A stretch of 64,000 nt of DNA from an uncultured bacterium (GTDB lineage Bacteria > Bacillota_I > Bacilli_A > RFN20 > CAG-826), in contig CASDYZ010000007.1 of NCBI GenBank assembly GCA_949285325.1, forward strand, positions 82,657 through 146,656. Direction: 5' to 3'. Of this stretch, positions 19,924-62,574 are shown one piece after another; within the stretch, counting starts at the first letter, position 1, and each line of letters starts with the position of its first letter. The notes beneath the pieces are model-generated. The model worked only from the letters and a program-made list of their open reading frames with translations, was not told the origin of the DNA and did no database searches. The position numbers were made by a program, and so were the translations under genes.

Positions 19924-20003
19924 GCCATCGCGATGTGCAGTCACGAACCAGGTCAGGATAGGAATATAGCAGCCTTAAGTGTCCTGTTCATGTGCGGTGG
20001 TTT
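19924..20003 (+). ncRNA. ffs: Signal recognition particle RNA (small, 4.5S/scRNA type)
   Basis: Contains the invariant SRP domain IV sequence CCAGGUCAGG...GGAA...AGCAGCC. The 5' GCCAUCGC pairs with the 3' GCGGUGG to close a long imperfect hairpin. It sits directly upstream of tadA, as scr lies upstream of dnaX in B. subtilis. Confidence 0.75.
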
Positions 20004-20011
20004 ATTTGTGT

Positions 20012-39311: not shown

Positions 39312-40025
39312 ATGGGTTTATTAAGTAAAATAATTAGTTTATTTAAAAGAAATAAGAATCCAACAATTAATGGCAAAGTTGGAGAAGATTTAACTAATTT
39401 TCATTTAAATAATTGCAGTAGTGATTGTCCTATTCGCAAGGGAATAAATGATTTAATTCTTTTAGATGAGAACGGCATGAGTCATCAAATCGATCATGTT
39501 GAAATAAGAGAAAATGGTATATTTTGTATCGAGACAAAAAATTATGCTGGATGGATTTTTGGAAATGAAGAGTGCGAGTACTGGATTCAAAACTTTTACA
39601 ATAAAAATAAACGCAGATTATATAATCCTATAAAACAAAATAAAACACACTGCGACGTCATTAATAAAGTCATAGGGGATAAATATAAAATTAATTCACT
39701 CATAGTGATGACTAAAAACAACGCTGATAAGATTAAAAGCGAAAAAGTTATTAATTTAAATGAGCTAGTGATGCATTTAGAAATTTTTGATAACGGTGTT
39801 CATTTATCTAATGAAGAAATAATTGATATTTATAATAAGTTAGAGTCAGCAAGAAGTACGATAAACAAAAAGCAACACATAGATAATGTCAAAAAAGTTA
39901 AAAAAGCGTTGAATAAAAATATTTGTCCTATGTGTGGTGCCCAATTGATATTGAAAAAAGGAAAATTTGGTGAATTTTACAGTTGCGCTAATTTTCCTAA
40001 ATGTAGTTTTACTAAAGAAGCATGA
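39312..40025 (+). CDS. NERD (nuclease-related domain) protein with C-terminal topoisomerase-type zinc ribbon
   Basis: N-terminal NERD-like region (GEDLT..HL....DCPIRKGINDLILLDENGMSHQIDHVEI.E.GIFCIETKN). C-terminal CPMCGAQLILKKGKFGEFYSCANFPKCSFT zinc ribbon. Confidence 0.7.
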   Translation: MGLLSKIISLFKRNKNPTINGKVGEDLTNFHLNNCSSDCPIRKGINDLILLDENGMSHQIDHVEIRENGIFCIETKNYAGWIFGNEECEYWIQNFYNKNKRRLYNPIKQNKTHCDVINKVIGDKYKINSLIVMTKNNADKIKSEKVINLNELVMHLEIFDNGVHLSNEEIIDIYNKLESARSTINKKQHIDNVKKVKKALNKNICPMCGAQLILKKGKFGEFYSCANFPKCSFTKEA

Positions 40026-40070
40026 TGTGGCCCGTGCTATAATACAGTTCAGTTAAGGATAAAAGTATAT

Positions 40071-42146
40071 ATGGAACATAGTCTAAAAAGAACGCCCGGT
40101 AGAACATATTATGAATCTACAATAGAAGAATTTGTGTTAAATAAAAAACCTAGAGAAATAGTGGATTATTTAACAGAAAGTGATGAAGAGATGGATTTAA
40201 ATATTTTAAAATCTCAAAAGCACGCTTGGACTAATCAGATATCAATATTGCAAAAATATTTAAAAGATAAATCCGGTTATATTATTTTTGAATATGTTTT
40301 ATCCAGATTAAATATGAGGATAGATGTTGTACTTTTAATGGGTGATGTTGTCTATTCTTTAGAATTTAAAAATTTTGAAACAACATTTAAACCTGATGCG
40401 ATAGACCAAGCAGAAGGTTATGGATACGCACTTAAAAACTTTTATGAAGTGAATAGAGATAAATATGTCGTACCTATATTAATCGCGACAAAAGCGCCAG
40501 ACAGTATATGTTCTAATAAATCTGATTTAGGGATAGATAAACTGTTTACTCTTTTTAAAGCTAATATACATAAGATGGAGCAATACATTGAATTAATTAG
40601 ATCAAAATATGGTTCTACTACGATATATACTGAAGAGGATTTTAATAACTGGGTTAACTCACCTTTTAAACCTAATCCTTCAATCATACAAAGCGCTAGA
40701 TCAATATATATGAACAATCAAGTTGATGAGTTTTTTAAATTTGACGCTGGTGAAGAGAATTTAAAAGTAACTGAATCGACAGTGGAAGCTATTGTTAAAG
40801 ATGCGAGAGAAAACAAAAAGAAAATTATTTGTTTTGTTTCAGGTGTGCCAGGTGCAGGTAAAACATTAGTTGGTCTCGATTTAGCGGGTAAAACTAGAGA
40901 TGGTGTCAATGAAAAAACAATATTTTTCAGCGGTAATGGACCTCTTATTAACGTACTTACAGAAGCGCTTGGAAGAGATGCTTTTAAAAATAATCCCTTA
41001 AAATATCCTAATAAAAATCGTGCAGTTACTGATGTTAAAGCGTTTATACAAGACCTGCATGCTTTTAAACAAGATATCATCTCATCAAAAAATAAAACGA
41101 TAGAAGAAAATGTATTGATATTTGATGAAGCACAACGAGTTTGGGATGAAACTCAACTTGAGCAGTGGCTTAAAAAGAAAGGCGCAGATCCTAAATTTTA
41201 TGGTTTGTCAGAAGCCGATTTATTATTAAACACTTTCAACAACCGTTCATGGGGCGTCATCGTCGCCTTAGTAGGGTTAGGTCAAGACATACACAGAGGC
41301 GAAAATGGTTTAGGCGTATGGTTTAATTCACTTTTAAACAAACACAAAGAGTGGGAGATTAGATTGTCTGATGGTATATTTAGCCAAAACGCTGATGATT
41401 TAAGAGATTACATGGATGAATTAAAAAATAATAAAAGAGTAAAAGAGTGCCCAGGCTTATTTTTAAAAACATCGATAAGAACTCCCAGGGCTAAAAATTT
41501 ATCTGAATTTACTGAAGCATTATTGTTTAATAATCCCTCTAAAGCAAGACACGCTCTATCTAAATTTAACGATTATCCTATATGTATAACTAGGAATCTC
41601 GAGTTAGCTTTAAATTTTGTACAGTCTAATTCAGCTAGAAAAGAGAGAATAGGTAAACTCTGTAGCAGTAATAGCAAGATATTAGGTAAAAGAAGTCGTC
41701 AATTTGATAATATTGTCAATTTTAAATTTTCTAACTGGATGCTCGACGAAAATGGAGCGGATTGTTCAAATACACTAATATATGCGGCTACAGAATTTAA
41801 TATCCAAGGACTAGAGATAGATTGGTCACTTTTAGGTTGGGACATGGATATGTATTATTCTAATGGTGAGTGGTGTCAGCAGAAAATGTTGACCGCTAAA
41901 CGATTTAAAGAAAGTTCAGATATTGAGAAAAAACATATTTTAAATTCTTACCGTGTCCTACTTACAAGAGCGAGAAAAGGTATGGTTATATATATACCAA
42001 AAACAGACGAATATGAAGATGTCTATGGCACAAATAAATATTTAGATTCAACATATGATTATTTAAAGTCATGTGGTATTAAAGACATAGAAGAAGAAGC
42101 AACCATGTTTAATAAACAAATAGACGCTGTTAAGTTGCCTTTTTAG
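40071..42146 (+). CDS. DUF2075-family (Schlafen-like) P-loop ATPase/helicase with N-terminal restriction-endonuclease-like region
   Basis: Walker A FVSGVPGAGKTLVGLDL, Walker B LIFDEAQRVWDE and a C-terminal LLTRARKGMVIYIP SF1-like motif. The N-terminal ...IFEYVLSRLNMRIDVVLLMGDVVYSLEFKNFE resembles a PD-(D/E)xK module. Confidence 0.65.
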   Translation: MEHSLKRTPGRTYYESTIEEFVLNKKPREIVDYLTESDEEMDLNILKSQKHAWTNQISILQKYLKDKSGYIIFEYVLSRLNMRIDVVLLMGDVVYSLEFKNFETTFKPDAIDQAEGYGYALKNFYEVNRDKYVVPILIATKAPDSICSNKSDLGIDKLFTLFKANIHKMEQYIELIRSKYGSTTIYTEEDFNNWVNSPFKPNPSIIQSARSIYMNNQVDEFFKFDAGEENLKVTESTVEAIVKDARENKKKIICFVSGVPGAGKTLVGLDLAGKTRDGVNEKTIFFSGNGPLINVLTEALGRDAFKNNPLKYPNKNRAVTDVKAFIQDLHAFKQDIISSKNKTIEENVLIFDEAQRVWDETQLEQWLKKKGADPKFYGLSEADLLLNTFNNRSWGVIVALVGLGQDIHRGENGLGVWFNSLLNKHKEWEIRLSDGIFSQNADDLRDYMDELKNNKRVKECPGLFLKTSIRTPRAKNLSEFTEALLFNNPSKARHALSKFNDYPICITRNLELALNFVQSNSARKERIGKLCSSNSKILGKRSRQFDNIVNFKFSNWMLDENGADCSNTLIYAATEFNIQGLEIDWSLLGWDMDMYYSNGEWCQQKMLTAKRFKESSDIEKKHILNSYRVLLTRARKGMVIYIPKTDEYEDVYGTNKYLDSTYDYLKSCGIKDIEEEATMFNKQIDAVKLPF

Positions 42147-42242: not shown

Positions 42243-45200
42243 ATGGCAACGATTAATGAACAAGTTGAAGAATATAGAGAAACAGAAGTTTTAAAATTGT
42301 ATAAAGAACATAAAGACGAGATTATTCGTGATTTAAATAGAGAAAAAAGTACAAAAGATGACTACAACGGTAGAGTAATTTTAGAATTGTTACAAAACGC
42401 TGTTGACCAAGCAATAGATGGTGAAACAGTAAAAATATTTATTAGTTTAGAAAACAATGAGTTAATTATTAAAAACACAGGCGAACCTTTTGATTTTGAA
42501 GGTGTAAAAAGTGTTATGAAATCCGATCATTCGCCAAAAGCTGAAGATCAAAACACTATCGGATATAAAGGGCTTGGGTTTCGTTCGGTAATAAACTGGT
42601 CTCATGATATTTCTATTTATAGTCACGATTTAAGCATTAGATTTTCTAACAATTTTAGAAAACAATATTTTGAAAAAAATGGAATATTAGACGAAACAGC
42701 GTTACTAGTAGCACCGCAAATAATAGAAAACATCGACCAAGACGGATATGACACAATTATCAAGATTAAAATTGATAACGAAACAAAAATAGAAGAAGTA
42801 AAATCACAACTTAACAATATCAATAAATATACTTTGTTGTTTTTAGACAATGTCGATGAATTATCTATTAAAATAGATAATAGAACTAAAAGATATCAAA
42901 GAAAAGAAAAAGAAGATGAAGTTACAATAATTGATGATGGAAATGAAAACAAATTCAACCTTTTCAAAAAAGAAGAAGAAATAAATGATAAAAAACATAA
43001 AATCGTGATTGCGTATGATCCGGCAATCGATTGTACAAAAAATAAACTTTATTCATATTTTGAAACGAACATTTCTCTTCCTATTAAATGGAAATGTCAT
43101 GTAACATTTGATTTAGAATCAAACAGAAAACATATTGTAGAAAGTGAAGACAATATAAATCTTTTTAAAACATTGATTTCTTTTATTTTAGAAAAAGCAC
43201 AAGAGTTGGCAGAAAAACAAAATCCTAGAACGTATGAATTTTTTGATAGTGTGTTACCAATAATTAAGGCAGAGCATTTATCTTTTGGAATAAATGACGC
43301 ATCACTAATAAGTTTTTTTAAAGATGAAATTGAAAACGCCAAGATTCTTCCAACATTACCAAACGGTTTAGTTTGTTTAAATGATCGACCAATATTTTAT
43401 GAGAATATTCCTGATTTTTTTAAAGATATAGAAAATGAAAAAATTTTATGTGAATCAAATGATAAAGATAGAAACGAAATTTTGAGCAAAATGCTACAAT
43501 ACAACGATTTTAATCCTATGGGCTTAAAAGAACAAATTAATAAAGTGAGTCATGAATATGACGCAAAAACAAATGTTGGCATTTATTTATGGTGGGAGGG
43601 CAAATATAGAAATAATAATAATTGTTTACCAAACGTTTTAAAAAATTCACATGGAGAGTTTATAGAAAAAGACACTAATGTTTATTTTGTGCATAGTAAT
43701 GAAGATTTTGATATTCCAACTTGGGCAAAAATTATCCAACTTGATAAAGAATATGAGCAAGAATTAAAAGAACAAACACAGAAGTTTTTCCCGCATATAT
43801 TTAAAAAAAATAAGGATTCAGTTGAAAGAATAATTGGGGCAAATTCTGGTAAATATCAAATATTATCTCATATCAATTTTCATGATTCTGATATTTCTAA
43901 CATAATTTCTCCTATAAATTCATCGGTAAAGAATGATTTTAAAAAAGCAAAAGAATTTGTTAAGTGGCTATGGAAACATTATTCAAATAGAGATGGGTGG
44001 GTACCACCAGATGAAATAAGATTTAATTTTCCATCAAATAACGAAACAGTTTGTAAAGCCAACGAATTATTTTTAGGACAAAATTATGACAATCCATTAG
44101 GTGATAAATTGTTTCAAGACAATAAATTTGAACCTTTGTTAGACTTTAAAAGACTTAATATAGAACAAGAACAAAAAGAAGATTTTATAAAATTTATTTT
44201 AAAATTTTCGGTAAATAAATTCCCAGTATTACAAAAAACAACTATCGAAGATAGTGATTTTAGAAAGCAATATTCAGAAGAGTGGATAAAAAATAAAATA
44301 TTAGAAATATATGAAAAAGACGAACCAAGATACATTGAATTAAAAAAAGTAGAAACCAACAATATCGAAAAATTAGAAACAATATTAGACAATCTTGAGG
44401 ATTATGAAATTTTTCAGTGGTTGTGTTTTGATGATAAAATCAAGCAAGAAATAGAATTGAAAAACAAAAATCAAATTACAGTTGATTATGATATAAGATC
44501 TTATACCCATAGAAACAATCAAATAATAGAAGATGATGAAAGAAGTTATATCAAATATATAATATCTAAAACTAAATGGATAAATATTGGTGGAGTAAAA
44601 CATGCACCTGTTGAGTGCGTATTTATTAATAAATATGATGTTAAACTAAATGAGTTGCTACATGTTATTGACGAAGAATATATTAAGAATATTTGTAACA
44701 AAGCAAATATTACAAAAGATACATTAAATAAGACAATTAAACATATCGGTATAGCGGAACGTATAAGCAATTTAAAATCCAATGATTTGTATGACTTCTT
44801 ATTAAAATTACCAAATTATGATAAACGGGGGATTATTTCCAAAAAACTATATAACGAATTTTGTGAGCCAGATAATACTATTGATATTACATATTCAGAA
44901 AATAAACAAAGATTTTTTCAAGAAGGACAAGTTTACACTTATAACAGAGATGGTGAAAGTTTTCATCTTGCGTCTGACACATATTTTACTAATAGCATGA
45001 TGATAAATTTAAAGAACAAATATATTATTTTCACTCCAAATAGAAAAGGAAGCTTTGAAACATTTAAAAATGTATTTGGTGTTCAAAAATTTGAAGAAAA
45101 TGTTTCCGTAGTTGAAGGAAGTGAAACAATAAGTCAGCACAATAAAAGTTTCCAAGAAGATTTTAAAGATTTTGTTAAATATGCGAGACATTGGAAAATA

Positions 45201-46685
45201 AAAAATGAAAAACTAGGAGAAGAAATAGATAAGATAACAGTTAAACTTATCACACAAATTAGTTTAGAGGAAAACGGAAAGACCATGATATTCAAAGATA
45301 AATATATCCCAATTTTTAATGGTAAAACATGGTACATAGTAGTGGACGATAGCGATGATGTGAATGATCTTAATATAAGAGAATGCATTGAAAATATTTG
45401 TGGAAAAATTGGAAACACGGAGAATGAGACAATTTTGCGTGAGTTAGGTGAAGTTTATGAAAACAAAAATAATAGATTACAACGTACCGAGAAGTATTTA
45501 GGAGAACCAATATCGATAGAAGACACTGTAATTGAAAACGAGATACGTAAGTCATTTGCAAAAATATTAAATTTAAAATACGAAGATGACGATTTGAAAG
45601 GTATTGATTTTGACAATATTGAATCTTTAGAAGTAGCAGAGTCAATATTTAAACTTTTGAAAAGGCATAATAAAAGCATAAAAGAATTGCGACGAGATAA
45701 TTTTAAGTACATCGATAAAATTAAATTTGAAAACTATTTTCAAAACATGATAAAAAATTTCATCGACACCAATGAAGACAAATACAAGAATTCATTATTT
45801 GTGTCTTATAAAGATAAAGATAGAAAAGACCAAGAACAATTTTTAGATAAGGTTGATGAATTTAAACATTTTTCTCCTGACTTTGACGCAACAAAATTTG
45901 ACATAGATTTTGACGCACAAAAATTAGTTACAAAACATTTTTCAATCATAGGCGATGAGATAGACGCTGAAGCGGACGAAGAATACGAAAACAATTTCAA
46001 AGAATATTTTAGTGATTTATATAATAATGATGAATTTAAAGACTTTCTCATTAGAAACAAAAATTATAAATCTTTAATTTATTTTATTAATGACACCAGT
46101 GGAGATATCGTAGATGAAATTAAAAATAAATATAACGGTCAAAAACAATTAAGTTTAGAGGATATCTACCCTTCAATCAGCGGAGAACAAAATCGCGCTA
46201 TAGATGATTTTATAGTGACAAAGAGTAAGTTTGAACCTAACATCACATCAACAAACAAAGGCGCAAATTCAAAAGAACATGTGAAAACATCTAATGAAAT
46301 TGAAAGAGAAAATCGTAAGAAAAGGAAAAGTGGAAAACAAGCAGAAGAAATAGTATACAATTCTTTAAAGGACCGTATACCTTCTTTAAAATGGACTTCA
46401 GAAAGTTCGTCTTGTGCAAGTCAAAGAGGAAATTCACAAAAATACGATATGGAATATATCAAAGATGGAGAGAAACACTATATAGAAGTCAAGGCGGGCG
46501 TCACATCTTTTTATATGTCTAGAAGTGAATATGATTTTTCACAAGAGAATAAAGATGTCTATGAAATATATTTAGTTGATTCAGACGCTACAAAAATAGA
46601 TGGCCCACACACGATAGGTGAATTTGAAGGCGCGAAAGAAGTTAATGAATATATCTTTAATTTTAAAAAAGTTACTGACAATTAA
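42243..46685 (+). CDS. Giant sacsin/HSP90-like GHKL ATPase with C-terminal DUF3883 (restriction-endonuclease-like) domain
   Basis: Bergerat-fold N-box ILELLQNAVDQA and G2 box IGYKGLGFRSVINWS at the N-terminus. A C-terminal DUF3883-like block (GKQAEEIVYNSLKDRIPSLKWTSE...KYDMEYIKDGEKHYIEVKAG...YEIYLV) closes the 1480 aa protein. Confidence 0.65.
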   Translation: MATINEQVEEYRETEVLKLYKEHKDEIIRDLNREKSTKDDYNGRVILELLQNAVDQAIDGETVKIFISLENNELIIKNTGEPFDFEGVKSVMKSDHSPKAEDQNTIGYKGLGFRSVINWSHDISIYSHDLSIRFSNNFRKQYFEKNGILDETALLVAPQIIENIDQDGYDTIIKIKIDNETKIEEVKSQLNNINKYTLLFLDNVDELSIKIDNRTKRYQRKEKEDEVTIIDDGNENKFNLFKKEEEINDKKHKIVIAYDPAIDCTKNKLYSYFETNISLPIKWKCHVTFDLESNRKHIVESEDNINLFKTLISFILEKAQELAEKQNPRTYEFFDSVLPIIKAEHLSFGINDASLISFFKDEIENAKILPTLPNGLVCLNDRPIFYENIPDFFKDIENEKILCESNDKDRNEILSKMLQYNDFNPMGLKEQINKVSHEYDAKTNVGIYLWWEGKYRNNNNCLPNVLKNSHGEFIEKDTNVYFVHSNEDFDIPTWAKIIQLDKEYEQELKEQTQKFFPHIFKKNKDSVERIIGANSGKYQILSHINFHDSDISNIISPINSSVKNDFKKAKEFVKWLWKHYSNRDGWVPPDEIRFNFPSNNETVCKANELFLGQNYDNPLGDKLFQDNKFEPLLDFKRLNIEQEQKEDFIKFILKFSVNKFPVLQKTTIEDSDFRKQYSEEWIKNKILEIYEKDEPRYIELKKVETNNIEKLETILDNLEDYEIFQWLCFDDKIKQEIELKNKNQITVDYDIRSYTHRNNQIIEDDERSYIKYIISKTKWINIGGVKHAPVECVFINKYDVKLNELLHVIDEEYIKNICNKANITKDTLNKTIKHIGIAERISNLKSNDLYDFLLKLPNYDKRGIISKKLYNEFCEPDNTIDITYSENKQRFFQEGQVYTYNRDGESFHLASDTYFTNSMMINLKNKYIIFTPNRKGSFETFKNVFGVQKFEENVSVVEGSETISQHNKSFQEDFKDFVKYARHWKIKNEKLGEEIDKITVKLITQISLEENGKTMIFKDKYIPIFNGKTWYIVVDDSDDVNDLNIRECIENICGKIGNTENETILRELGEVYENKNNRLQRTEKYLGEPISIEDTVIENEIRKSFAKILNLKYEDDDLKGIDFDNIESLEVAESIFKLLKRHNKSIKELRRDNFKYIDKIKFENYFQNMIKNFIDTNEDKYKNSLFVSYKDKDRKDQEQFLDKVDEFKHFSPDFDATKFDIDFDAQKLVTKHFSIIGDEIDAEADEEYENNFKEYFSDLYNNDEFKDFLIRNKNYKSLIYFINDTSGDIVDEIKNKYNGQKQLSLEDIYPSISGEQNRAIDDFIVTKSKFEPNITSTNKGANSKEHVKTSNEIERENRKKRKSGKQAEEIVYNSLKDRIPSLKWTSESSSCASQRGNSQKYDMEYIKDGEKHYIEVKAGVTSFYMSRSEYDFSQENKDVYEIYLVDSDATKIDGPHTIGEFEGAKEVNEYIFNFKKVTDN

Positions 46686-46831
46686 TTATTAATTCAACAT
46701 CATTTTTATAAAAATCAAAGCAAAACGAGCATATTTAATATATATTTACATTAATATTTGATTAATTTAATTAGTTTTGCTATGTGTGTAAACAATGGAC
46801 TTTAAAATAAAAATATTTGATAATTGTATTT

Positions 46832-49800
46832 ATGAAACATTTCTTGCTTTTGATAGATATAGACCATCTTGCTGTTTCTAATAATTTTAATAAAAGCATG
46901 TTTGATTTTGTTTTTAATCGTGGCGGTTTTCATCTTGCAAATTCTCTTACCGCCAGCAAGAATAAAAAGCTTTTTGGTGAATATAAAAATATAGATGATA
47001 ATTTTAATGAATTTGAACCAGTGATAGAGAGTTGTTATTTTGATTTATGGCAAGGTAGATTTAAGAATCTAATCATATCTTTTTATGATGTGACAAATAG
47101 TCTTAATTATGGTCTAGTTAAATATAACATTAAAACTAAGATGTTTGAGTTATATTATGTGAATAAAGATAGAGATAAGTTTATTGAGAACAATGATGTT
47201 GATGATATTTTAGATAAAGATTTAAGTGATAAGATTATCGATTATGTCTCGTCTTTAGATGTAGAGACACTAGGTGAATTGTCTAGCAATGTTTATGTGT
47301 CAAAAGAAAATAAACTATTGATTATTGATCAATCTAAAATAAGTGAAAACACTAAAACGATACTTAATGTAATGTTATCTAATAAATTAAATACGACAAA
47401 CATCATCAATATTAAAAATGTCGCGGTGGATATTGAAGATTTAAATAATCCACTATACGTATATGTTGAATTTGAATGCAAAGATAAAAAATATGAGTAT
47501 TGGTTTTATGATGAGGAATTAAAAGATATCGATGTATTAGATTATGGTGAAATTAAAGATACTTGGCTAGATATATTTATCAACAAAGCAGAAGAAGAAT
47601 TTATAAGACAAAATAAAAAGATTCTTATAGATGTTTTAAATAAGAAAAACAAAGATGATGCGTTTAATGTGTTATCTAAATTATATAAAAAATTTAAACT
47701 TGTTAAATGTGACGATGGATATGGATATATAGAACTAAATAGCGACCCCTTTATATATTTAGACGACGATAATGTCAAAATCAAAACTAGTAGAAATATC
47801 GATGACGATAGTTATGTTGTGTTTGATTATATAAACATCATAGACAATAAAAATGAAATTAAGAAAGTAATCGATAGATATATATCAAGTAAGCCAAAAG
47901 AATACGATACATTTATAAAGGAAGTAGATGAATTTATAAATAACATATACGACCTAGATACATCAAAACAAATTGCGTTAAAGTTATTAGAAAAAGCTAA
48001 TAATTTATCGCCGTACGATAAAACGACAACGATATATGAAAAAGCATATCAACAACTTAAAAATAAGTATAATCAATTGATCAATGTCAATAAAACTAAA
48101 GTCAGCAATTGTTTAACGTTGTTAAATAAAATAGTGGATATCAATACGTATAACACCTATTGTGATGCATTTAACGATGCAGTGGAAGAGTGTAGTGAAG
48201 GTGAATTAAGCGCTTTTAAAAATGAATACGATGATTTTTTAAATAAGTATGGATATATATCAAATTATCCATCGACACACACTGTATATAGAAGAGTGTT
48301 TATAAGAAAAAGTGTGCTAGAAGATTTAAAAAAACTAGATATTGAAAATAAGGGATTAAAAATATTGTCGGTGATGGATGATATCGTCGATAATTTAAAG
48401 ACACTGCCAGGTAATGAACTTGGTAAATATTTATTAAATAAAGGTTTAAATTTTCCAATTAAAAATGATAGGTCGATTAAAAAGATAAGGATACTTAGAA
48501 ACGCAAAATATAGATTGTTATTTGTCTATGGTTCTGATTTAAATGATGTAGAAAGAAATACTAATTCCAACAGCGTTTATATCTTTGCCCTAACTATGCA
48601 TAAAAAGGACAGCGGTGAACTATATACACTAGCAAAAACAAAACCAAACAAATATAAAATTAATGATTTTATTATCTATCCAAAAAACAAATTGATTAAA
48701 ATACCAGAATGTACATCTAAACAGTATGAGATTGCCTCTAGTTATAAAAATAGACCACTCGTCACTTTTGGGTGTGCGGGAAGTGGGAAAACGACTGTGT
48801 CCATCGAACAATATGTCAATATTGTATATAACAACTTCAACTGCGCTTCACCTAAGGTAGATGAACTTGTCTATATAACATTTCATAAAGGTTTATCAGA
48901 CAAAGTTAAAAAAGATTTACTAGAATTTCACATCGATGGTAATTGTTATAAATTAGATGAATATTTTGCTTATGTAGTGGGGGAAGAATATAACAAAGCA
49001 CAAATCATCGATGAACATGTCTTTGTCAGTTGGTTTAATAAAACATATTCAAAAAGTGAGATTAAAAAGAATAAGTCAAAAAAGAAAAATAAAATAAGCC
49101 CACTTTTAAATAAGCCAGATATTGCAAGATTAATTTATACATATTACCGTGGAGTATTTAAAGGTAGCAAAGAACTTTATAATTCAAAAGACAATTATCT
49201 AGATAAAGATACATTTATGTTGGAGATGAGTGGTGAGACTTATCTAAGTGATGAAGAGAAAAACGCCATATATTTGTTTTGTTTAGAATTTAATGACTAC
49301 GCTTTTAAAAACAATTTATTAAGCGACAATGACTACGCACTTAAAGTTATAAGACAATCGTCATTTGATATTAAAAAAACAAACTGCATCATCATCGATG
49401 AGGTGCAAGATTTAACTGAGATTGAAACAATCGCGACCATTTTAACTCTTAACGATGACAGTGCGAGGATATATTTTTATGGCGATCCTCATCAAAGTAT
49501 TAATCCAAATGTATTTGATAGTTCGACTATCAATAGGGTTTATACCGCTTTAGGTAAATCGACATCGAGTGAAAACGCTCCTCTTACTATCACTTATAGG
49601 ACTAATAAGCATCTAATTAAATATTTAAATCAACTTCTTAAATACCGTGATAAGTGGATAGGGGCCACTAAAGAAGAACTATCGCAGATAGAAGAGCCGC
49701 CTATAATGGATGAAGATACTTCTTGGGCGGGGTACGTCACTAATAAAGAGTTATATAACAAAATATTTATCACTAATCCTAGGAGTATGATTATTACCCC

Positions 49801-50605
49801 AAGTGAAGAGATAAGAGAAAAATTATTAGATAAATATAAACAGATAGATAAAGAACGTGTCATCACTATATACGACGCGAAAGGGATGGAGTGGGACACG
49901 ATTATCATGTACAACATCTTCAGCGATTATAAGACATATTTTTTAGACATGATTTTAGAAAACGGGTGTGCGAAGAAAAGTACAATTCATAGGATGACGT
50001 TTAATAAATATTATGTTGGTTGTACAAGGAGTACGAAAAGCTTTGTCATCGTCGAAGAAGATGAAGACATATTTAAAAAAGATAATCCGATTTTTAAAAC
50101 GTTATTATCTTCTTTTGCCCCTATTTCAAAAAAAGAACAAATCGATACTTATATATTAGAAGATAATACTTTTGATGCGTGGTATAAAGAGGCAGTGCAA
50201 AACTTAAGTAACGACAATACATCGACATTTGAACACGCTTTAAAACATGCGAGAAGTCTAGCTAAAACAAATGAAGAAATTAGGATGGTCAATAGTCTAA
50301 TCGACGGCACACCTGAACATCTTGAAAGAAGCGCATTTAAATATCTTGAAGAAGGTGAATATGATTTATCACTAAGTACATTTATCAAATGTAATAAAAT
50401 AAATAAACGATATGGCCCATATATCATATTATGCGCGCTTCTATGTGGTAGAAATATAACTGATGAACATTTAAAAGAAATATTAAAACATCAAGAATTA
50501 TTTGATAAATATCCTTCTGCCCTACCTAAACTTATGACACAGAAAGTATTTATAAATAAATTGACGACATTATCTAATAGATTATTTAACAAGGAGGAAA
50601 AATGA
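46832..50605 (+). CDS. UvrD/Rep-like superfamily 1 helicase with long N-terminal extension containing a RelE/ParE-like segment
   Basis: Walker A VTFGCAGSGKTTVS, Walker B IIDEVQDLT, motif IV-like TYRTNKHLI and motif VI-like YYVGCTRSTKSFVIV. Upstream of the P-loop, KIRILRNAKYRLLFVYGSD...VYIFALTMHKKD resembles the RelE/ParE toxin fold. Alternative start at 46817. Confidence 0.7.
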   Translation: MKHFLLLIDIDHLAVSNNFNKSMFDFVFNRGGFHLANSLTASKNKKLFGEYKNIDDNFNEFEPVIESCYFDLWQGRFKNLIISFYDVTNSLNYGLVKYNIKTKMFELYYVNKDRDKFIENNDVDDILDKDLSDKIIDYVSSLDVETLGELSSNVYVSKENKLLIIDQSKISENTKTILNVMLSNKLNTTNIINIKNVAVDIEDLNNPLYVYVEFECKDKKYEYWFYDEELKDIDVLDYGEIKDTWLDIFINKAEEEFIRQNKKILIDVLNKKNKDDAFNVLSKLYKKFKLVKCDDGYGYIELNSDPFIYLDDDNVKIKTSRNIDDDSYVVFDYINIIDNKNEIKKVIDRYISSKPKEYDTFIKEVDEFINNIYDLDTSKQIALKLLEKANNLSPYDKTTTIYEKAYQQLKNKYNQLINVNKTKVSNCLTLLNKIVDINTYNTYCDAFNDAVEECSEGELSAFKNEYDDFLNKYGYISNYPSTHTVYRRVFIRKSVLEDLKKLDIENKGLKILSVMDDIVDNLKTLPGNELGKYLLNKGLNFPIKNDRSIKKIRILRNAKYRLLFVYGSDLNDVERNTNSNSVYIFALTMHKKDSGELYTLAKTKPNKYKINDFIIYPKNKLIKIPECTSKQYEIASSYKNRPLVTFGCAGSGKTTVSIEQYVNIVYNNFNCASPKVDELVYITFHKGLSDKVKKDLLEFHIDGNCYKLDEYFAYVVGEEYNKAQIIDEHVFVSWFNKTYSKSEIKKNKSKKKNKISPLLNKPDIARLIYTYYRGVFKGSKELYNSKDNYLDKDTFMLEMSGETYLSDEEKNAIYLFCLEFNDYAFKNNLLSDNDYALKVIRQSSFDIKKTNCIIIDEVQDLTEIETIATILTLNDDSARIYFYGDPHQSINPNVFDSSTINRVYTALGKSTSSENAPLTITYRTNKHLIKYLNQLLKYRDKWIGATKEELSQIEEPPIMDEDTSWAGYVTNKELYNKIFITNPRSMIITPSEEIREKLLDKYKQIDKERVITIYDAKGMEWDTIIMYNIFSDYKTYFLDMILENGCAKKSTIHRMTFNKYYVGCTRSTKSFVIVEEDEDIFKKDNPIFKTLLSSFAPISKKEQIDTYILEDNTFDAWYKEAVQNLSNDNTSTFEHALKHARSLAKTNEEIRMVNSLIDGTPEHLERSAFKYLEEGEYDLSLSTFIKCNKINKRYGPYIILCALLCGRNITDEHLKEILKHQELFDKYPSALPKLMTQKVFINKLTTLSNRLFNKEEK

Positions 50606-51150
50606 TGGAAGAAGAAAATAAACTTACTGTAGAGGAAATGAGATCGCTTATATCTATATCTACTCTCTTACCAGCTTTGCTTGATAAAATTATGTCTATC
50701 CATAAAGATATTGAAGAACTTAAAAAAGAATTTAAAGACATGAAAGACAAATTTAACAACAACACATCCGCGGTTTTGTCATACAAAGATGAAGTTGATG
50801 ACATGATTAAGAAAAACAATATTAAAAGTGAATTAGATGACATCAAACAAAATATTTTAAAGATTGAAAATAGTGTTTTAAATATGACTAAAAGTTCAAC
50901 CAAAAATAAAAGCGATGATAAAACAAAAATAGTCAGTGAAGAAAAAGAAGAAGATGATGATGAAATCAAATCGATGGCGGACAAAATCTTAATGGATCAC
51001 AAAGGCCGTAAATCGAGGCTTTTAACAGTCATCGATATTAAAAAAGCATTTAAGGTAGACGATAAAAAAGCAAGAGAAGTCATACAATATTTTATTGATA
51101 AAAAGATGTATGATGAACAGATGCGCATATTAAAATTCCCTAAAAAATAG
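50602..51150 (+). CDS. Small acidic coiled-coil protein, translationally coupled to the upstream helicase
   Basis: 182 aa, Glu/Asp/Lys-rich with heptad-like periodicity. ATGATGG overlaps the helicase stop. A possible winged-helix-like C-terminus is inference only. Confidence 0.45.
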   Translation: MMEEENKLTVEEMRSLISISTLLPALLDKIMSIHKDIEELKKEFKDMKDKFNNNTSAVLSYKDEVDDMIKKNNIKSELDDIKQNILKIENSVLNMTKSSTKNKSDDKTKIVSEEKEEDDDEIKSMADKILMDHKGRKSRLLTVIDIKKAFKVDDKKAREVIQYFIDKKMYDEQMRILKFPKK

Positions 51151-51171
51151 TAGAAGTGGCACAATATAAAT

Positions 51172-52083
51172 ATGCGTTATTTATTTTTTGACATTGAATG
51201 TGCTGATGGGATGTTTGCCATATGTGAATTTGGTTATGTCATATGCGACGAGAATTTTAAAATAACTCATAAGAGAAATATATTAATTAATCCCAGGAGT
51301 AAATTTAGATTAACAAATAGAAAGAAGTCTAAAGATTTAGCTCTTACTTACCCTATAGAAGAATATATTAAACATAATGAATTTAATGAATTTTATGACA
51401 ACATCAAATTTTTATTGACGCAGAAGAACATAAAGATATTTGGATACGCGGTTAATAACGATATTAGTTTTTTGTTTAGAGACACTCTTCGATACAATTT
51501 AAAATTGTTTGATTTTAGTTGTTACGATGTACAAAAGATGCTTAATATATTTTCAAGCAACAACAACGCATCAACATCTTTAGAAAAAGCATATACAAAT
51601 TTAGTAAAAGATAAAGTAGACATTAAACATCACCACGCGCTTTGCGACGCATATAAGAGTATGCTTATCTTTAAAGCAATGGTGGAGGCACTAGACACGA
51701 GTGTCGAGCAGTTTATCTCGCTTTGCTCGTCTTCATTTATAAACGCTTTATCGAGTTGGAATAAAACGCAAAAGAATGAACAAAATAAAAGGCAGAAGAG
51801 AAAATGGGATAAATTTGTATCAAGTTATAAAAATAAAATCGATAACGATAAAACAATTTATGTCAGTGATTTAATTTATTTAAATGATAAGCAGTTTGAA
51901 GTTATAACAAAATATATTAAAGATAATAATTTAATACCAACTAAATCGATAAGTGCTTGTTACCTCGTGTTCTTAGATGAAAAAGAGAAGAACAAGAGAC
52001 TTATAAAGATAAAAGAATTTATAAAAGGTGAAATATTAATCTATCAAGATATATTAAATAAAATGAAAAGTAACAATAAGTAA
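51172..52083 (+). CDS. DEDDh-family 3'-5' exonuclease (DnaQ-like)
   Basis: Exo I motif FFDIEC, Exo II GYAVNNDISFL and Exo III HHALCDAYKS (the H-x4-D of DEDDh). It starts 21 nt after the upstream gene. Confidence 0.7.
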   Translation: MRYLFFDIECADGMFAICEFGYVICDENFKITHKRNILINPRSKFRLTNRKKSKDLALTYPIEEYIKHNEFNEFYDNIKFLLTQKNIKIFGYAVNNDISFLFRDTLRYNLKLFDFSCYDVQKMLNIFSSNNNASTSLEKAYTNLVKDKVDIKHHHALCDAYKSMLIFKAMVEALDTSVEQFISLCSSSFINALSSWNKTQKNEQNKRQKRKWDKFVSSYKNKIDNDKTIYVSDLIYLNDKQFEVITKYIKDNNLIPTKSISACYLVFLDEKEKNKRLIKIKEFIKGEILIYQDILNKMKSNNK

Positions 52084-52134: not shown

Positions 52135-52839
52135 ATGGAATTTAAAGACAAACTTAAAAAATTAAGAACAGAAAATGGTTTGACACAAGAAGCGTTAGCA
52201 GAAGCGATACACGTCTCTAGAAGTGCGATAGCAAAATATGAAAATGGTAATGGTTATCCATCTAAAGAGACGCTAGAGTCTCTTGCTTATTATTTTGGTG
52301 TTGATATAAGTGAATTAGAAAGCGACGAGATAATTGTCAAAAGAAAGAAAAAGAAAAACATCATTAAAATCATATTAATTGTATTCTCAAGTATCATTGG
52401 GGCAATCGGTCTAGGTTTAGCGGGATTCGCCATTTATTTTGAACTCAACAAACTACCAACTGGCGGGATGGTAGAATTTAATGCCTCAAAAATAGGTTTA
52501 AATGCCTGTAAAGAAATGAGAGAAATTACTTTACATGGACATACATTTACTTACTACAACGTTAAATCTAACGAAAAAGGTGAATGGATCTTGGTGGATG
52601 AGACATCGCATATAATTAACACTGACATCATCTTTGGCTTTAGACTAAAAAGTGGTGATAAAGTATCAATCAATGGATATTATAACGACGAAGCAGAAAT
52701 TTATAATAATGTATCTAAAGCGTATCCTGGATACACTGATTATTCGATAAGAGATTATGGATTTATCATTGAAGTAAAAGATGACACTGAGGTGCCACCT
52801 GAAGGGATAAATTTAGGAATAATGATGCATTGGTGTTAA
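52135..52839 (+). CDS. Membrane-anchored XRE-family HTH transcriptional regulator
   Basis: N-terminal Cro/C1 HTH (LRTENGLTQEALAEAIHVSRSAIAKYENG), a single TM helix (IIKIILIVFSSIIGAIGLGLAGFAIYF) and a roughly 130-aa C-terminal extracytoplasmic domain. Confidence 0.7.
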   Translation: MEFKDKLKKLRTENGLTQEALAEAIHVSRSAIAKYENGNGYPSKETLESLAYYFGVDISELESDEIIVKRKKKKNIIKIILIVFSSIIGAIGLGLAGFAIYFELNKLPTGGMVEFNASKIGLNACKEMREITLHGHTFTYYNVKSNEKGEWILVDETSHIINTDIIFGFRLKSGDKVSINGYYNDEAEIYNNVSKAYPGYTDYSIRDYGFIIEVKDDTEVPPEGINLGIMMHWC

Positions 52840-57301: not shown

Positions 57302-58919
57302 ATGAAACACTTTAAAACATTATTTTTGTTTTTACCATTATTGGGTTTAGTAAGTACCTCACTCTATGGGTGTGGAAAACAAGGTGAAGATAGCTCTTCT
57401 TCAATTACAACTAGTCAAACTAGTGAAGAAACTTCTTCTTCGTCTATTGAACTAGAAATTTCACTTCAAATACTCGATGGCGATATTATCGGGTTGGATG
57501 TCGGTGATACTTATCAACTCAATGTGTCGGTAGTCAATAGTGAGTTTACCCCTACCTTTTACCTCATCAAATGAAGATGTCACTTCTATTAATGAAGATG
57601 GCTTGATAAGTGCGATTAGTGAAGGAAGTACCATAATAAGTGCATCTATTGGAGATGTGATTGATTCAATTGAAGTAGTGGTTAATCCTATTCAACAAGA
57701 AGGCAGTGTACAAACTTATTTATATGTATTAAATCAAAGCGATTTTACTGGTTCAGGATATGATACAAGCGCGGGGAGTGCATATATAGATGGTTTAACT
57801 TGGGACTATGAAGCCTTCCCGTTTTTAGGGCAGAGTGCGGATGGCGTACAAATTGGTTCAAATAAACAACCACCTAGAGATGGTTGGACCATATCGACTA
57901 CTTTCCCTGGCGAGATAATTATGCTCAATTATGAAATTACTTTAAAGACAAATTCCCCTGCCTCTTATAAAGTGAGTATGGGAGAATATGTCAGCGAAGA
58001 AGAAATCCCGGGGAATAGCGTCACGACAGTATATGGTGAAGAAGGATTAGATATAAAGACCACTGATTCCTCTTTAACATTAACCAACCAAACCAAAGCA
58101 GTATACCTATATTCTATTTACTTAGAACTATTCGTCCCTGAAGGAGTAGATTTATCTTTGACTATTAAAGAAGATGAATTAACTCCTATCCAGCCTGGCG
58201 AAGGGGATGTGCCCAATGTCAATTATGAATTAATTGATAAAGAACAATATTATTCTTCTATAGATTTTAATAGTGACGCGTCAACACTAAAGGAAGAACT
58301 ATCCACACTTATATCGAACATGACTAGAATTAGTTATGGCGATGATACATATATCATGATTTACACTGATGAAAGTGTAGAAAAGCTTGGTACGTTATAT
58401 GGTATATATGGCGGTGATGAAATAGCCGCTGAGGCGGACGGCACATGGAATAAAGAGCACGTTTGGGTGTGTTCGCAGATGAAGAAAGATGGGGTTGATC
58501 CACGCCCTAGCAGTGACGATAAAAACCACGCGACAGACTTGCACAATCTTCGTGTCGCTTGTCAAAATAGCAATGGCCAACATGGCAATAAATTTTATGA
58601 CAACACCAATGGGGATATAACCTTTTTCCCTAACATTGAAGATGATGGCTCAGCAGTTCATGAATATAAAGGTGACCACCGAGGCGATCTAGCAAGAATT
58701 TTATTTTACATGGCTATTCGTTATGATTTCTTATCTTTAACAGATGATATTGAAAATGCAAACGATACATCAATGGGTCGATTATCTGTCTTATTAGAAT
58801 GGCACAAACTTGATCCAGCCGATGAATTTGAAACGCAAAGAAACAACCGTATTTATGAATTCCAAGGTAATCGTAATCCATTTATTGATTATCCTGGATT
58901 AGTTGATGTTTTATATTAG
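57302..58919 (+). pseudogene. Frameshifted lipoprotein extracellular nuclease (Endonuclease I family plus Big_2 domain), third paralog
   Basis: ORFs 57302-57574 and 57540-58919 are two frames of one gene. Signal plus lipobox (LYGCG), a Big_2 domain split at GAGTTTA (about 57546-57552; one T fewer would restore SELPLPFTSSNEDV). C-terminal Endonuclease I motifs NKEHVWVCS...DLHNLRVACQNSNGQHGNKFYD...LARILFYMAIRY. Confidence 0.7.
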
Positions 58920-59068
58920 TTTTTAATCAAAATAGTGGGTTTTTAAAGCGTTATTTGTTTTTAACTATAGTTTTTGATTATTTTTATCATTATTTTGTAA
59001 AAAAGTGATAACTTGCATTGATTAATTTTGTTATTTAATATTAATTTATTCAAAAATAAAGTTGATTT

Positions 59069-62000
59069 ATGGAACTATCAGTTAAAAATGCGCTTTACGA
59101 GTCGATAATGAACAATAAATGGCTCGACATCATCTATGTCAATAAAGCAAGTGAGACGACTTATTACTATATTGGTATAAAAGATATCGATGTAGAAAAA
59201 GATTTGATTTTATGCGACATCTTTAACGCATATAAAAAAGATAAAAAAGATTTAAATAATGTCAGTATTAAAATAAGTGGGATTAAAAAAGCAAAGATAC
59301 TCGACGCATCTTTTTACGACACACCTCTTACGTTAGTCAATAAGATTAATAATGATAAAAATATTATTAATTATTTAGATGTCATCAACTACGATAACAA
59401 CATCCTAAGATATTTATCCGACTGCTATAAAGCTGACAGTGATCCTTATTTAAAACATTCAGTGACAATCGATGGGGTGGATAACCACACATTGATAGAA
59501 AAAAGTAAATACAAATTAGATGAAAAGCAATTTGAAGATATATTAAATAAAGTTTTTAAAAAGCCTTTATATGACGCGGAAGTGATGAATAGATATCAAC
59601 AACTCGCCATTAATAAATTTTCTATCGACATAAACGATAAGCAGTATGTCGTCGCGTATAAAGAACTTTTTATCAATTTTAAAGACAAGACTTTAAGAGT
59701 GTCTAAAAAGACATTTTTCAATAAATCTTTTTTAGTCGATGAAGATAAAAAGATGACATTGAGTATGTATATAGATATGAATCAAGATGAGTTTTGTGCC
59801 TCGTATGATGAACATGAAAGAGAATATATCGAATTGATTCAATCGAATTTCAAAAGAGGGGAAAAAGTAAATACCCGCCCATCGATATTCTTCTTAGAAA
59901 GAAATGTCACCTATGGTGTCGATATGGCGTGTGAATCTATATACGCTTTAGATAGTGAAAATAAATTGACTCTTCCCTTAAAAGCGTTCTTCGGGAGAAA
60001 TAGACCATCGAAAGGTTCATCTAAAGAAGTTAACATCGTCGTCTTTGATAAGACAAAAATAAATATTGATCAAATTAGAGTGATATACTCCGCGATGCTC
60101 AACCACGTAACATATGTCAAAGGTCCACCTGGCACTGGTAAGACAGAAACTATTTTTAATGTCATATTATCCGCCTATTCAAACAATAAAACTGTTTTAA
60201 TTTGTTCTAATAACAATCATCCAGTTAATGACATCTATAGCAAGATGCAAAAATTTATGGTTAAAACTAACTATAGAACTAAAAAAGAAGAAGATATATT
60301 GTTCCCTATAATTAGATTAGGCAACAACCTCGAAGTTGTTGAATCTATGAATACGATTAGATCGGTTGTAGATTTTATAAGTAGCAAAAATCTTAAGTCT
60401 TTAAAAGATGAAATAACTGAAACATCTAAAAGACGTTCGATGGATGGATTTAATAAATTAAAACAACTTTTAATTGAATATGAAGAAAGAGTGGACAATG
60501 AAGATAAATTGTCGACATTATTAAAAATTAAAAACATCACCAAAATTGACGCTTTAAATCAAAAATTAGATGAGCAGATAAAGGTATATGAAAATAAAAT
60601 AAAAAATGGTAGAGAAATAAGTGATGAAGATGTATTAGAATACGCTTTAAGTGCGAGCAAGGATACAAATTTTCAAAACTTTATCTACTATTCTTCTCTT
60701 GCAAGGTATAAGAAATTACTTAGCCCGTCATATAAAGATTTAATTGAAATATTAAATATTGAAGACACCATTGAGGCACTTAATCAATTTAATAAATATT
60801 TAAAAAACAACGACAATCTCAAAAAGTTTTTATCGGTCTTCCCTTTTGTCGTGTCGACAAATATATCTTGTGATAAATTAGGCAGTCCTTCTCCACATTT
60901 TGATTTAGTCATCATGGATGAAGCTGGGCAGTGCAATATCGCTTCTAGTTTAATACCTATCGTGAGAGGTAACGACCTACTTTTAGTGGGCGATACAAAT
61001 CAACTTCAACCAGTGACAGTAATAGAAGAGAGCACAAATGAGAGGCTGATGGATAAATACGGAGTTAAATCTGAATATGACTATATTAGAAATTCTATAT
61101 TATCGAGTATGATGAGAGTGGATAACAATTCTAAAAATATTCTTTTGAGATACCATTATCGATGTGGGAGAAAAATAGCAAATTTTTCTAACAAAAGATA
61201 TTACAATTCCCAGCTTAAACTCCTAAATAAACACGAAGGCAAATTGACGTACGTAAATGTTAAAAATATCTATAACAAAAATAGTAGAAATGCATACGAG
61301 CAAGAAGCTAGAGCAATTGTAGAGATAATTAAAAATAACAATTATAAAGATGTAGGTGTCATCACTCCTTTTGTCAATCAAGCAGCGTTAATAAATGAAT
61401 ATTTAATAAAAGAAGGTATAACCGATGTAAAAGCCGGGACTATTCACACCTTACAAGGTTCAGAAAAAAACACCATTATCATGAGTAGTGCCTTAAGTTT
61501 AAGAACTAGCAAGAACACTTTAAAGTGGATTGAAAACAATTATGAATTGATCAATGTCGCGGTGACTAGGGCAAAAGAACAATTTATTTTTGTCGGAGAT
61601 AAACAAGCGATAGACCTATTAAGTGGTAACAACAAAAGCGACATAAAAGTTTTGTCGGATTACGTGTATGCGAAAGGGGAGATATTCGTCCCAGAAAGCG
61701 AATTAAAAATAGTTAATGATTTTTCTAACAATTCAAAAAATGAAAAAGAATTCTTCGACACGATTGGACCATATTTTAATAGGAGAGGCACTAAATTTAA
61801 AATCGATGCGAATGTGCCACTTAATCAAGCATTAAATGCATTAAGTGCGCAGGACAAGGATATTTTTGGTAAAAAAGAATTCGATATTGTCGTGTCAGTC
61901 GGTGAAGGATTGATAAGAAAAAAATACCGCACTCTCGTGGTATTTGAAATTGATGGAGGAGAGCATATCGGTTTAAAAAGGCAATCGCGACTCGATAGAG

Positions 62001-62167
62001 AAAAAGAAATGATTTGTCAAAAATATGGTATAAAACTTATCCGTATACCTAATTCAGCAGTTAAAGACTATGAGATGATTATATCTTTATTTGAATATGT
62101 TGTAAGCGGACTACCTAGCATCGATAAAGCCTATTCTCGATTGTCGTTATTTGAAGATAATGATTAA
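59069..62167 (+). CDS. Upf1/DNA2-like superfamily 1 helicase with C-terminal Vsr/DUF559-like endonuclease-fold domain (Hhe/Nhi-like single-protein defence candidate)
   Basis: Walker A GPPGTGKTETIFNV, Walker B VIMDEAGQ, motifs V/VI GTIHTLQGSEKNTIIMS and NVAVTRAKEQFIFVGD. The C-terminal about 120 aa (FDIVVSVGEGLIRKKYRTLVVFEIDGGEHIG...REKEMICQKYGIKLIRIP) matches the DUF559/Vsr-like REase fold. Confidence 0.7.
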   Translation: MELSVKNALYESIMNNKWLDIIYVNKASETTYYYIGIKDIDVEKDLILCDIFNAYKKDKKDLNNVSIKISGIKKAKILDASFYDTPLTLVNKINNDKNIINYLDVINYDNNILRYLSDCYKADSDPYLKHSVTIDGVDNHTLIEKSKYKLDEKQFEDILNKVFKKPLYDAEVMNRYQQLAINKFSIDINDKQYVVAYKELFINFKDKTLRVSKKTFFNKSFLVDEDKKMTLSMYIDMNQDEFCASYDEHEREYIELIQSNFKRGEKVNTRPSIFFLERNVTYGVDMACESIYALDSENKLTLPLKAFFGRNRPSKGSSKEVNIVVFDKTKINIDQIRVIYSAMLNHVTYVKGPPGTGKTETIFNVILSAYSNNKTVLICSNNNHPVNDIYSKMQKFMVKTNYRTKKEEDILFPIIRLGNNLEVVESMNTIRSVVDFISSKNLKSLKDEITETSKRRSMDGFNKLKQLLIEYEERVDNEDKLSTLLKIKNITKIDALNQKLDEQIKVYENKIKNGREISDEDVLEYALSASKDTNFQNFIYYSSLARYKKLLSPSYKDLIEILNIEDTIEALNQFNKYLKNNDNLKKFLSVFPFVVSTNISCDKLGSPSPHFDLVIMDEAGQCNIASSLIPIVRGNDLLLVGDTNQLQPVTVIEESTNERLMDKYGVKSEYDYIRNSILSSMMRVDNNSKNILLRYHYRCGRKIANFSNKRYYNSQLKLLNKHEGKLTYVNVKNIYNKNSRNAYEQEARAIVEIIKNNNYKDVGVITPFVNQAALINEYLIKEGITDVKAGTIHTLQGSEKNTIIMSSALSLRTSKNTLKWIENNYELINVAVTRAKEQFIFVGDKQAIDLLSGNNKSDIKVLSDYVYAKGEIFVPESELKIVNDFSNNSKNEKEFFDTIGPYFNRRGTKFKIDANVPLNQALNALSAQDKDIFGKKEFDIVVSVGEGLIRKKYRTLVVFEIDGGEHIGLKRQSRLDREKEMICQKYGIKLIRIPNSAVKDYEMIISLFEYVVSGLPSIDKAYSRLSLFEDND

Positions 62168-62574
62168 AAGACATAGATAATTAATAATTCTATTATTGGC
62201 CAAACTACATATATGATGATAGATATTAAACTTAACCAACTTAAAAAATTTTTATTACACCTAAATTGAAACACAAGAGTGGATAACGTATATCTAAAAA
62301 CATATATGTAAATTAAAAAACAAAATAAATATATAATCGCCCCTAAAATTAAAAAGACATAATAAAACACTAGATTACCATCGTTAAAATAATTAAAAGA
62401 ACTATCTATGACAAAACTAGCAAGATAAATTAATAAAGATAAAATTACGAGTGAGATAAAAGACACACATATACAATAAATAGCAAAATATTTGCTATTT
62501 TGTGCTTCATTTTTCGCTTTTAAAGTCTGATATTTGATTTCATATTTTTTATTTAAGTCATCGAGAAATTTCAT
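62164..62574 (-). CDS. Hypothetical small membrane protein
   Basis: 136 aa with four predicted hydrophobic helices. It overlaps the convergent helicase gene by 4 nt. Coding status is uncertain. Confidence 0.35.
   Translation of the reverse strand: MKFLDDLNKKYEIKYQTLKAKNEAQNSKYFAIYCICVSFISLVILSLLIYLASFVIDSSFNYFNDGNLVFYYVFLILGAIIYLFCFLIYIYVFRYTLSTLVFQFRCNKNFLSWLSLISIIIYVVWPIIELLIIYVF

Follow-up and report, generated by a model that had tools for sequence, protein, structure and literature searches.

A stand-alone helicase-nuclease with a WYL-like N-terminal barrel: a candidate immune effector encoded by an uncultured member of the Bacillota

Introduction

Nhi, Hna, Hhe, Mokosh type II and HmaA belong to a growing class of single-protein nuclease-helicase immune systems, in which the sensing of infection is largely unknown. 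Hhe is reportedly the single-gene system of Gao et al. 2020. Its defence activity requires its nuclease (bioRxiv 10.1101/2022.06.16.496414), and in Nhi an N-terminal nuclease is combined with a DUF2075 helicase of ∼610 residues (PMC11232893). An UPF1-like helicase, CnuH of the CoCoNuT systems, operates in an operon with the McrB/McrC-like proteins CnuB and CnuC and the coiled-coil protein CnuA (PMC11090510). The subject of this report is a gene that combines an Upf1-like helicase with a C-terminal nuclease; it is located at 59069-62167 (+) of a 64 000 nucleotide stretch (referred to as the window) of contig CASDYZ010000007.1, which was obtained from an uncultured bacterium of the Bacillota (GenBank assembly GCA_949285325.1).

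The N terminus of the encoded protein resembles a WYL domain. Such domains bind single-stranded DNA (ssDNA) and so report damaged DNA or an attack by phages, as in CapW and DriD (PMC11662680; 7tzv). In TePif1, a helicase of superfamily 1B (SF1B), the WYL domain serves as an accessory module, which binds ssDNA and couples ATPase activity to unwinding, and WYL-Pif1 helicases occur in bacteria (PMC6628001). Fusions of WYL domains to SF1 helicases and to nucleases had already been listed in 2014 (PMC4012209).

Results

Architecture and helicase core: The gene encodes a single polypeptide of 1032 residues plus stop codon, and the start codon is backed by conservation of M1 and of the N terminus among homologues. 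Three modules were identified: a WYL-like barrel, an Upf1-like SF1B helicase and a small C-terminal endonuclease of the PD-(D/E)xK type. Helicase motifs and nuclease signature were kept in 81 of 81 full-length representatives, and domain lengths were near constant across a divergent family. The coordinates of all modules given below refer to the forward strand of the window.

In the helicase (Pfam AAA_11 and AAA_12) the two RecA domains are present, and motifs I, Ia, II, III, IV, V and VI are all intact. The first part of RecA1 (residues 331-419; 60059..60325) contains the Walker A motif GPPGTGKT (nt 60122-60145) with the invariant K358; the second part (residues 591-655; 60839..61033) carries DEAGQ as motif II (nt 60917-60931) and GDTNQLQP as motif III (nt 60989-61012). 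RecA2 (residues 656-850; 61034..61618) contains HYRCG, GTIHTLQGSE and VAVTRAKE, and R834 is invariant. RecA1 is split by an insertion of ∼170 residues (420-590; 60326..60838), which is all-helical and charged (33 % Lys, Arg, Glu and Asp; 2 % Pro plus Gly) and shows the lowest sequence conservation in the protein, yet its length is kept (156-180 residues). A helical insertion after Walker A is found in the same place in CnuH helicases (PMC11090510). The closest structures of the helicase were RNA helicases. The SLFN-g3/DUF2075 family matched the P-loop segment (residues 346-400) only, and scores against the IGHMBP2 and RecD2 families were far under their cutoffs. RecA2 is followed by a linker (residues 851-885; 61619..61723) of low conservation and low pLDDT values (predicted local distance difference test). 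The full-length AlphaFold2 model was mediocre (pLDDT 68, predicted template modelling score 0.43), and it served only for the helicase and for inspecting the WYL-like barrel once more.

C-terminal nuclease: Residues 886-1010 (61724..62098) form an endonuclease domain of the Vsr/DUF559/DUF2726 type, which is followed by a variable acidic tail (residues 1011-1032; 62099..62164). A Pfam scan of the query gave DUF2726 (PF10881) at residues 891-1006 with 25.3 bits against a cutoff of 24.7. Among 45 diverse relatives, DUF2726 was matched in 36 (down to 4.9e-14), MTES_1575 (the Hhe-type restriction endonuclease) in nine and DUF559 in five. The family profile of the domain matched the Vsr-like homing endonuclease I-Bth0305I (3r3p) with an E value of 3e-4. 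Steczkiewicz et al. 2012 (PMC3424549) place VSR, DUF559 and DUF2726 together in a single group, the structures of which include 3r3p. Residues E892, D939, E960, G963, H966, D976, K979 and N995 were invariant or nearly so among sequences 23-50 % identical and fit the pattern E...D...ExxGxxH...DxxK of the DUF559/DUF2726 group; judged by this conserved pattern, the domain is probably active.

N-terminal region: Residues 1-330 gave no sequence match in Pfam, PHROG or the PDB, and their conservation equals that of the remaining protein. Residues 1-105 (59069..59383) are arranged as a helix (5-14), five strands within 19-77 and two further helices. They form a beta-barrel of the Sm/SH3 type, the closest structures of which were WYL proteins, and the motif KWLxIxY is conserved at residues 17-23. 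The Pfam WYL family (PF13280) was not matched by the query; 3 of 24 N termini matched at an E value of 0.05 or weaker, which is below threshold. Residues 106-330 (59384..60058) were delimited by secondary structure and conservation as a conserved alpha/beta region with a second beta-sheet at 175-230 and the motifs INxFSID..KQYVVAY, NTRP and PLKAFFG. Judged by their position directly before RecA1, they may be the counterpart of the 1B barrel and stalk in Upf1-like helicases. No internal duplication was detected between residues 1-105 and 125-320 (hhalign probability <2 %), PDB sequence searches with the N terminus alone or the C terminus alone yielded nothing useful, and a protein search with the N-terminal profile returned fragments only.

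A sequence-only reading of the window had described a single polypeptide in which a complete Upf1/DNA2-like SF1B helicase is followed by a small nuclease domain, and the motif analysis bears this out. Its assignment of the C terminus as Vsr/DUF559-like holds for the group, by the published classification (PMC3424549) and the 3r3p match; at the family level it had to be corrected. DUF559 was rejected as the exact family, which gave no match to the query, and DUF2726 matches instead. The ∼330 N-terminal residues had been left unassigned; they are now assigned in part, with residues 1-105 recognised as WYL-like, which alters the mechanistic picture.

Family and distribution: A phmmer search of the full library with residues 1-330 gave 259 clusters (50 % identity) at E≤1e-3; nearly all complete members were ∼1000 residues long, with the match at the very start. 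The close family comprises more than 120 proteins that are 58-64 % identical and stem from Erysipelotrichaceae-type metagenome-assembled genomes (MAGs). In species-representative genomes, full-length members were found in Bacilli, Acholeplasmataceae, Lachnospiraceae, other Clostridia, Coriobacteriaceae, Cryomorpha, Chryseolinea and Treponema, so the distribution is patchy and crosses phyla. Members are labelled "hypothetical protein", "probable DNA helicase" or "DNA helicase" by their sources. PLSDB plasmids, GenBank phages and IMG/VR contigs contained helicase-core relatives only, with no full-length member among the matches listed.

The AAA_11-AAA_12-DUF2726 core recurs with unrelated N termini. 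A sister family of ∼905-918 residues (loci L044, L046, L051, L052, L054-L057, L060 and L081) has the same core behind an unrelated, beta-rich N terminus of ∼183 residues that ends in IFPFGCNxSQ; it occurs in Bacteroidales, Prevotella, Muribaculaceae, Alistipes, Acetatifactor, Desulfitobacterium and Spirochaetaceae. No homology was found between this N terminus and that of the target protein. A Cohnella protein carries the helicase-DUF2726 core under another N terminus, and a further protein combines a Cys-rich N terminus with an MTES_1575/DUF559 nuclease. The 722-residue "AAA domain-containing protein" WP_001304205.1 (L089, 5131-7299), which is encoded on plasmid NZ_CP124741.1 of E. coli O157:H7 EDL933 beside PAPS-reductase-like and ParB-like genes, matches residues 591-993 of the query (RecA2 and nuclease) with 26 % identity.

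Genomic context: No conserved partner gene was found among 588 open reading frames (ORFs) from 36 loci. In an all-against-all BLAST comparison of these ORFs, the recurring proteins were the target, generic ABC ATPases and response regulators, the last two at variable distances. The immediate neighbours (129 proteins from 35 of the loci) were mixed, defence genes were a minority, and HTH_3 was the commonest domain (5 of 129 proteins). Ten contexts of the close family were inspected. Defence or mobile-element neighbours were present in eight of them (Fic, NERD, AbiEi, HipA, ParE/Phd, a DNA methylase with HNH, integrase or resolvase, NOV_C and a DruE-like DEAD/MZB helicase), whereas the gene lay between housekeeping genes in the other two. 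Five of the ten fall into a single hotspot that adjoins a tRNA-(U5)-methyltransferase gene, and the cargo differs in each. In qualitative terms, the gene behaves as a stand-alone unit that resides in variable islands rich in defence genes. This is the defence-type setting that the sequence-only reading had proposed; on this ground, and with a Vsr-like C terminus, neither of the findings that would have refuted that reading (a C terminus unlike DUF559/Vsr, or clustering with housekeeping DNA2/Upf1 homologues) applies.

In the window the hotspot spans ∼38.5-62.6 kb, and its cargo includes a NERD-Zn-ribbon protein, a PDC-S41 helicase, Tiamat TmtA, a module with a UvrD-like helicase and a DEDDh exonuclease, and the target. 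The hotspot stretch runs from 37134-38480 of the window to beyond 64000 (L001, 18507-19841), and was also found in L003, L090, L092 and L095. Its one limit is the tRNA-(U5)-methyltransferase gene; for the window, L003 and L092, the other limit is a Peptidase_C1_2 gene. The hotspot genomes are related and of the Erysipelotrichaceae type. Their defence-type sets vary by genome (Fic, NERD, AAA_14/DUF4143, DUF2130, an SLFN-g3 helicase with MazG, McrB_N-NOV_C).

The cargo genes of the window were assigned as follows. At 39312-42146 (+), a 237-residue protein with NERD and a topoisomerase-type Zn-ribbon is followed by a 691-residue SLFN-g3/DUF2075 helicase (40071-42146), which matched PDC-S41, a candidate system of PADLOC, over its full length (603 bits) and Nhi only weakly (E 1e-4). 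The 1480-residue TmtA (42243-46685, +) ends in a NOV_C domain and matched PADLOC PDLC03964 over its full length (753 bits; profile positions 8-1510 of 1538). A candidate three-gene module (46817-52083, +) encodes a 1262-residue UvrD-like helicase with a long N terminus and weak GajB matches, an overlapping charged protein of 182 residues and a DEDDh 3'-5' exonuclease of 303 residues, which matched PADLOC DEDDh at 1.7e-6. Next, at 52135-52839, lies the gene of a membrane protein with an XRE-type helix-turn-helix (HTH).

The neighbours of the target in the window are Endonuclease_1, a 136-residue membrane ORF and HU. The Endonuclease_1 gene immediately upstream (57540-58919, +) is one of three paralogues, the others being located at 26853-29183 (-) and 29185-31785 (-); all encode large secreted nucleases with Ig-like or lamin-tail domains. 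The target gene probably has its own promoter in the AT-rich intergenic region 58920..59068 (+). Promoter-like hexamers at 58942-58990 were not more frequent than in shuffled sequence, and promoter and terminator scans around the gene were at or below shuffled expectation. The 136-residue ORF (62164-62574, -) is convergent with the target, and 4 nt are shared at the stop codon of the latter. By its hydrophobic sequence the ORF appears to encode a multi-pass membrane protein; it gave no Pfam match and is not kept beside target homologues. An Rfam scan found nothing near the target gene; the sole match in the window was the bacterial small signal recognition particle RNA (RF00169, 60.5 bits) at 19917-20013 (+). 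No tRNA genes were found in the window, and searches for boundary or att-like repeats around the gene or the island gave only AT-rich chance matches.

Discussion

Proposed function: On the best-supported reading, to which we give a probability of roughly one half, the protein acts alone as an immune effector of the nuclease-helicase type and is directed at phages or at invading DNA of other kinds; an anti-phage phenotype would be expected on this reading. SF1B helicases move 5'→3' along single strands, characterised Vsr/DUF559-type enzymes cleave DNA, and ssDNA binding by WYL domains is likewise established; the following sequence of events is proposed because of these precedents. The WYL-like barrel would bind single-stranded nucleic acid, most likely ssDNA, arising from phage replication or recombination intermediates or from damaged DNA. 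Binding would load or license the Upf1-like motor, which would hydrolyse ATP and translocate 5'→3' on the strand, so that the tethered Vsr/DUF2726-type endonuclease could nick or cut the DNA along which it is carried. The replicating genome of the invader would thereby be destroyed, or infection would be aborted if host DNA were also struck. The ligand of the barrel, DNA rather than RNA as the substrate, and the coupling between the modules are what we infer here.

As such, the protein is most likely a variant within a known kind, namely the defence candidates that unite nuclease and helicase in one polypeptide, and a further helicase-nuclease fusion in a defence island is in itself unsurprising. 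More tentatively, and with odds well short of even, the barrel might be a built-in allosteric switch, by which phage-derived ssDNA or another small nucleic-acid signal licenses the motor-nuclease in cis; the same proposal would place the present family, Hhe (with DUF4011), the ∼910-residue Bacteroidales/Clostridia family and others in one modular superfamily, in which a sensor that can be exchanged at the N terminus is joined to an Upf1-like motor and a Vsr-type nuclease to give immune effectors of a single protein. If this were true, WYL sensing would be wired to an effector enzyme instead of to transcription. The presumed WYL-like sensor in cis, together with N-terminal swapping, offers a direct and cheap means of testing the sensing of infection by such proteins. 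The family is a compact case of ∼1000 residues, in which the presumed sensor has a recognisable fold with a known class of ligand (ssDNA in DriD and CapW); sensing should therefore be testable by a few point mutants. Reuse of the Upf1-like helicase and Vsr-type nuclease core with at least three unrelated N-terminal modules helps to set Hhe and Mokosh within a wider modular scheme. The family is also common in Bacillota MAGs from gut and rumen, where validated defence systems are few.

Alternative explanations: The main rival is an RNA-targeting effector of the Mokosh/CoCoNuT kind, because the closest defence helicases are those of Mokosh and the closest structures are RNA helicases. Here the motor would translocate along transcripts of the phage or RNA-DNA hybrids, single-stranded RNA would be the ligand of the WYL-like barrel and the PD-(D/E)xK domain would cleave RNA; we regard this as unlikely, with perhaps one chance in a handful. 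Three other roles are less likely. An SF1B helicase joined to a PD-(D/E)xK nuclease is a Dna2-like arrangement, bacterial WYL-Pif1 helicases exist (PMC6628001), two contexts lie between housekeeping genes, and sources name members "DNA helicase", all of which would suit a housekeeping helicase-nuclease of DNA repair or replication (Dna2-like, AddAB-like or WYL-Pif1-like). Such a role is nevertheless improbable: the distribution over phyla is patchy, there is no conserved synteny or partner, scores lie far under the IGHMBP2 and RecD2 cutoffs, and the close family occupies a hotspot of changing cargo that also holds Tiamat, Fic, NERD, AbiE, HipA, toxin-antitoxin and restriction-modification genes.

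About equally improbable is a multi-gene system with varying partners, for instance an adjacent Fic or NERD protein, or control by an HTH protein. Fic adjoins the target in L003, L007, L090 and L092, NERD is present in L003, in L007 and, at a distance of 19 kb upstream, in the window, and HTH_3 leads the neighbour domains, but none of the neighbour clusters keeps a fixed position from locus to locus, Fic and NERD each account for only 2 of the 129 immediate neighbours and are absent beside the window copy, and several copies have no neighbour of this kind. Least probable of all appears a selfish or island-maintenance role, either as a homing-type endonuclease-helicase for island spread or retention or as an anti-plasmid factor. 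It would agree with a mobile-intron homing endonuclease (3r3p) as the nearest solved relative of the nuclease, with integrase or resolvase genes adjoining the target in L005 and L090 and with the report of DUF2726 amid mobile elements (PMC3424549); against it stand the lack of flanking repeats or att-like sites around gene or island, the failure to find the target on plasmids, phages or viral contigs among the matches listed, and the size of a ∼1000-residue protein with motor and sensor, which is atypical of homing endonucleases.

Comparison with described systems: Returning to the immune effector reading, no paper was found on a three-part WYL-helicase-nuclease architecture, nor one that ties DUF2726 to a defence helicase. 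The WYL sensors DriD, CapW, BrxR and PafBC share the fold of residues 1-105, but in these proteins the WYL domain steers transcription through an HTH, whereas the WYL-like barrel of the target lies in cis with an effector enzyme. TePif1, like the target, has a WYL domain attached to an SF1B helicase, but it has no nuclease.

The sequence-only reading had suggested correspondence to Nhi or Hhe, and neither could be upheld. Nhi (Bari et al. 2022) unites an SF1 helicase and a PD-(D/E)xK nuclease in one gene and degrades the replication intermediates of phages, and by analogy would be the best functional model for the proposed mechanism. Identity with Nhi was rejected on the opposite domain order (the nuclease of the target is C-terminal), the DUF2075 type of its helicase and the lack of a match between the PADLOC Nhi model and the target at E≤0.01; by sequence, the Nhi-like gene of the window is the 691-residue helicase at 40071-42146. 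Hhe (HheA), like the target, is a single polypeptide in which an Upf1-like AAA_11/AAA_12 helicase is followed by a C-terminal Vsr-type PD-(D/E)xK nuclease, but Hhe has ∼1800-1900 residues with an N-terminal DUF4011 region, in contrast to 1032 residues and a WYL-like N terminus. DUF4011 was not matched by the query (E≤1) and was not among the top families of the 45 relatives, and Hhe models matched the helicase part only (PADLOC, 58.6 bits; NF042953, 73.2 bits where the cutoff is 2000, its best stretch being confined to residues 610-778). Identity with Hhe was rejected for the missing DUF4011 and the lack of a full-length NF042953 match.

The PADLOC models nearest to the helicase core were MkoC and MkoA of Mokosh (188 bits, E 6.7e-56, and 141 bits), although the best stretch of MkoC (PDLC03924) covered profile positions 670-966 of 1136 only. 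Mokosh type II MkoC is a monomeric single-protein nuclease-NTPase (bioRxiv 10.1101/2025.07.10.664194) with a long region ahead of the helicase, as in the target. The Mokosh effector is a phospholipase D (PLD; HKD) nuclease, whereas that of the target is DUF2726/Vsr-like; no PLD family was found in Pfam scans of the query (E≤1) or of the 45 relatives, and identity with Mokosh II was rejected on this ground. Automated tools may label such genes "Mokosh" from helicase similarity alone. In defence helicases of the YprA family, PLD and Vsr nucleases swap at the C termini (PMC12458937), so a Mokosh-like motor with a Vsr-type effector would not be surprising.

CnuH of CoCoNuT III-B shares with the target an UPF1-like helicase, a large helical insertion after Walker A and a fused Vsr-like endonuclease; its N-terminal nucleic-acid-binding domain is a Sul7s-like winged HTH instead of a WYL-like barrel. 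McrB/McrC was not among the neighbours of the target in the window, and was neither a recurrent neighbour in the 36 loci nor a frequent neighbour domain. By analogy, the protein would work most like Hhe, Mokosh II, Nhi and CnuH, but it belongs to none of them.

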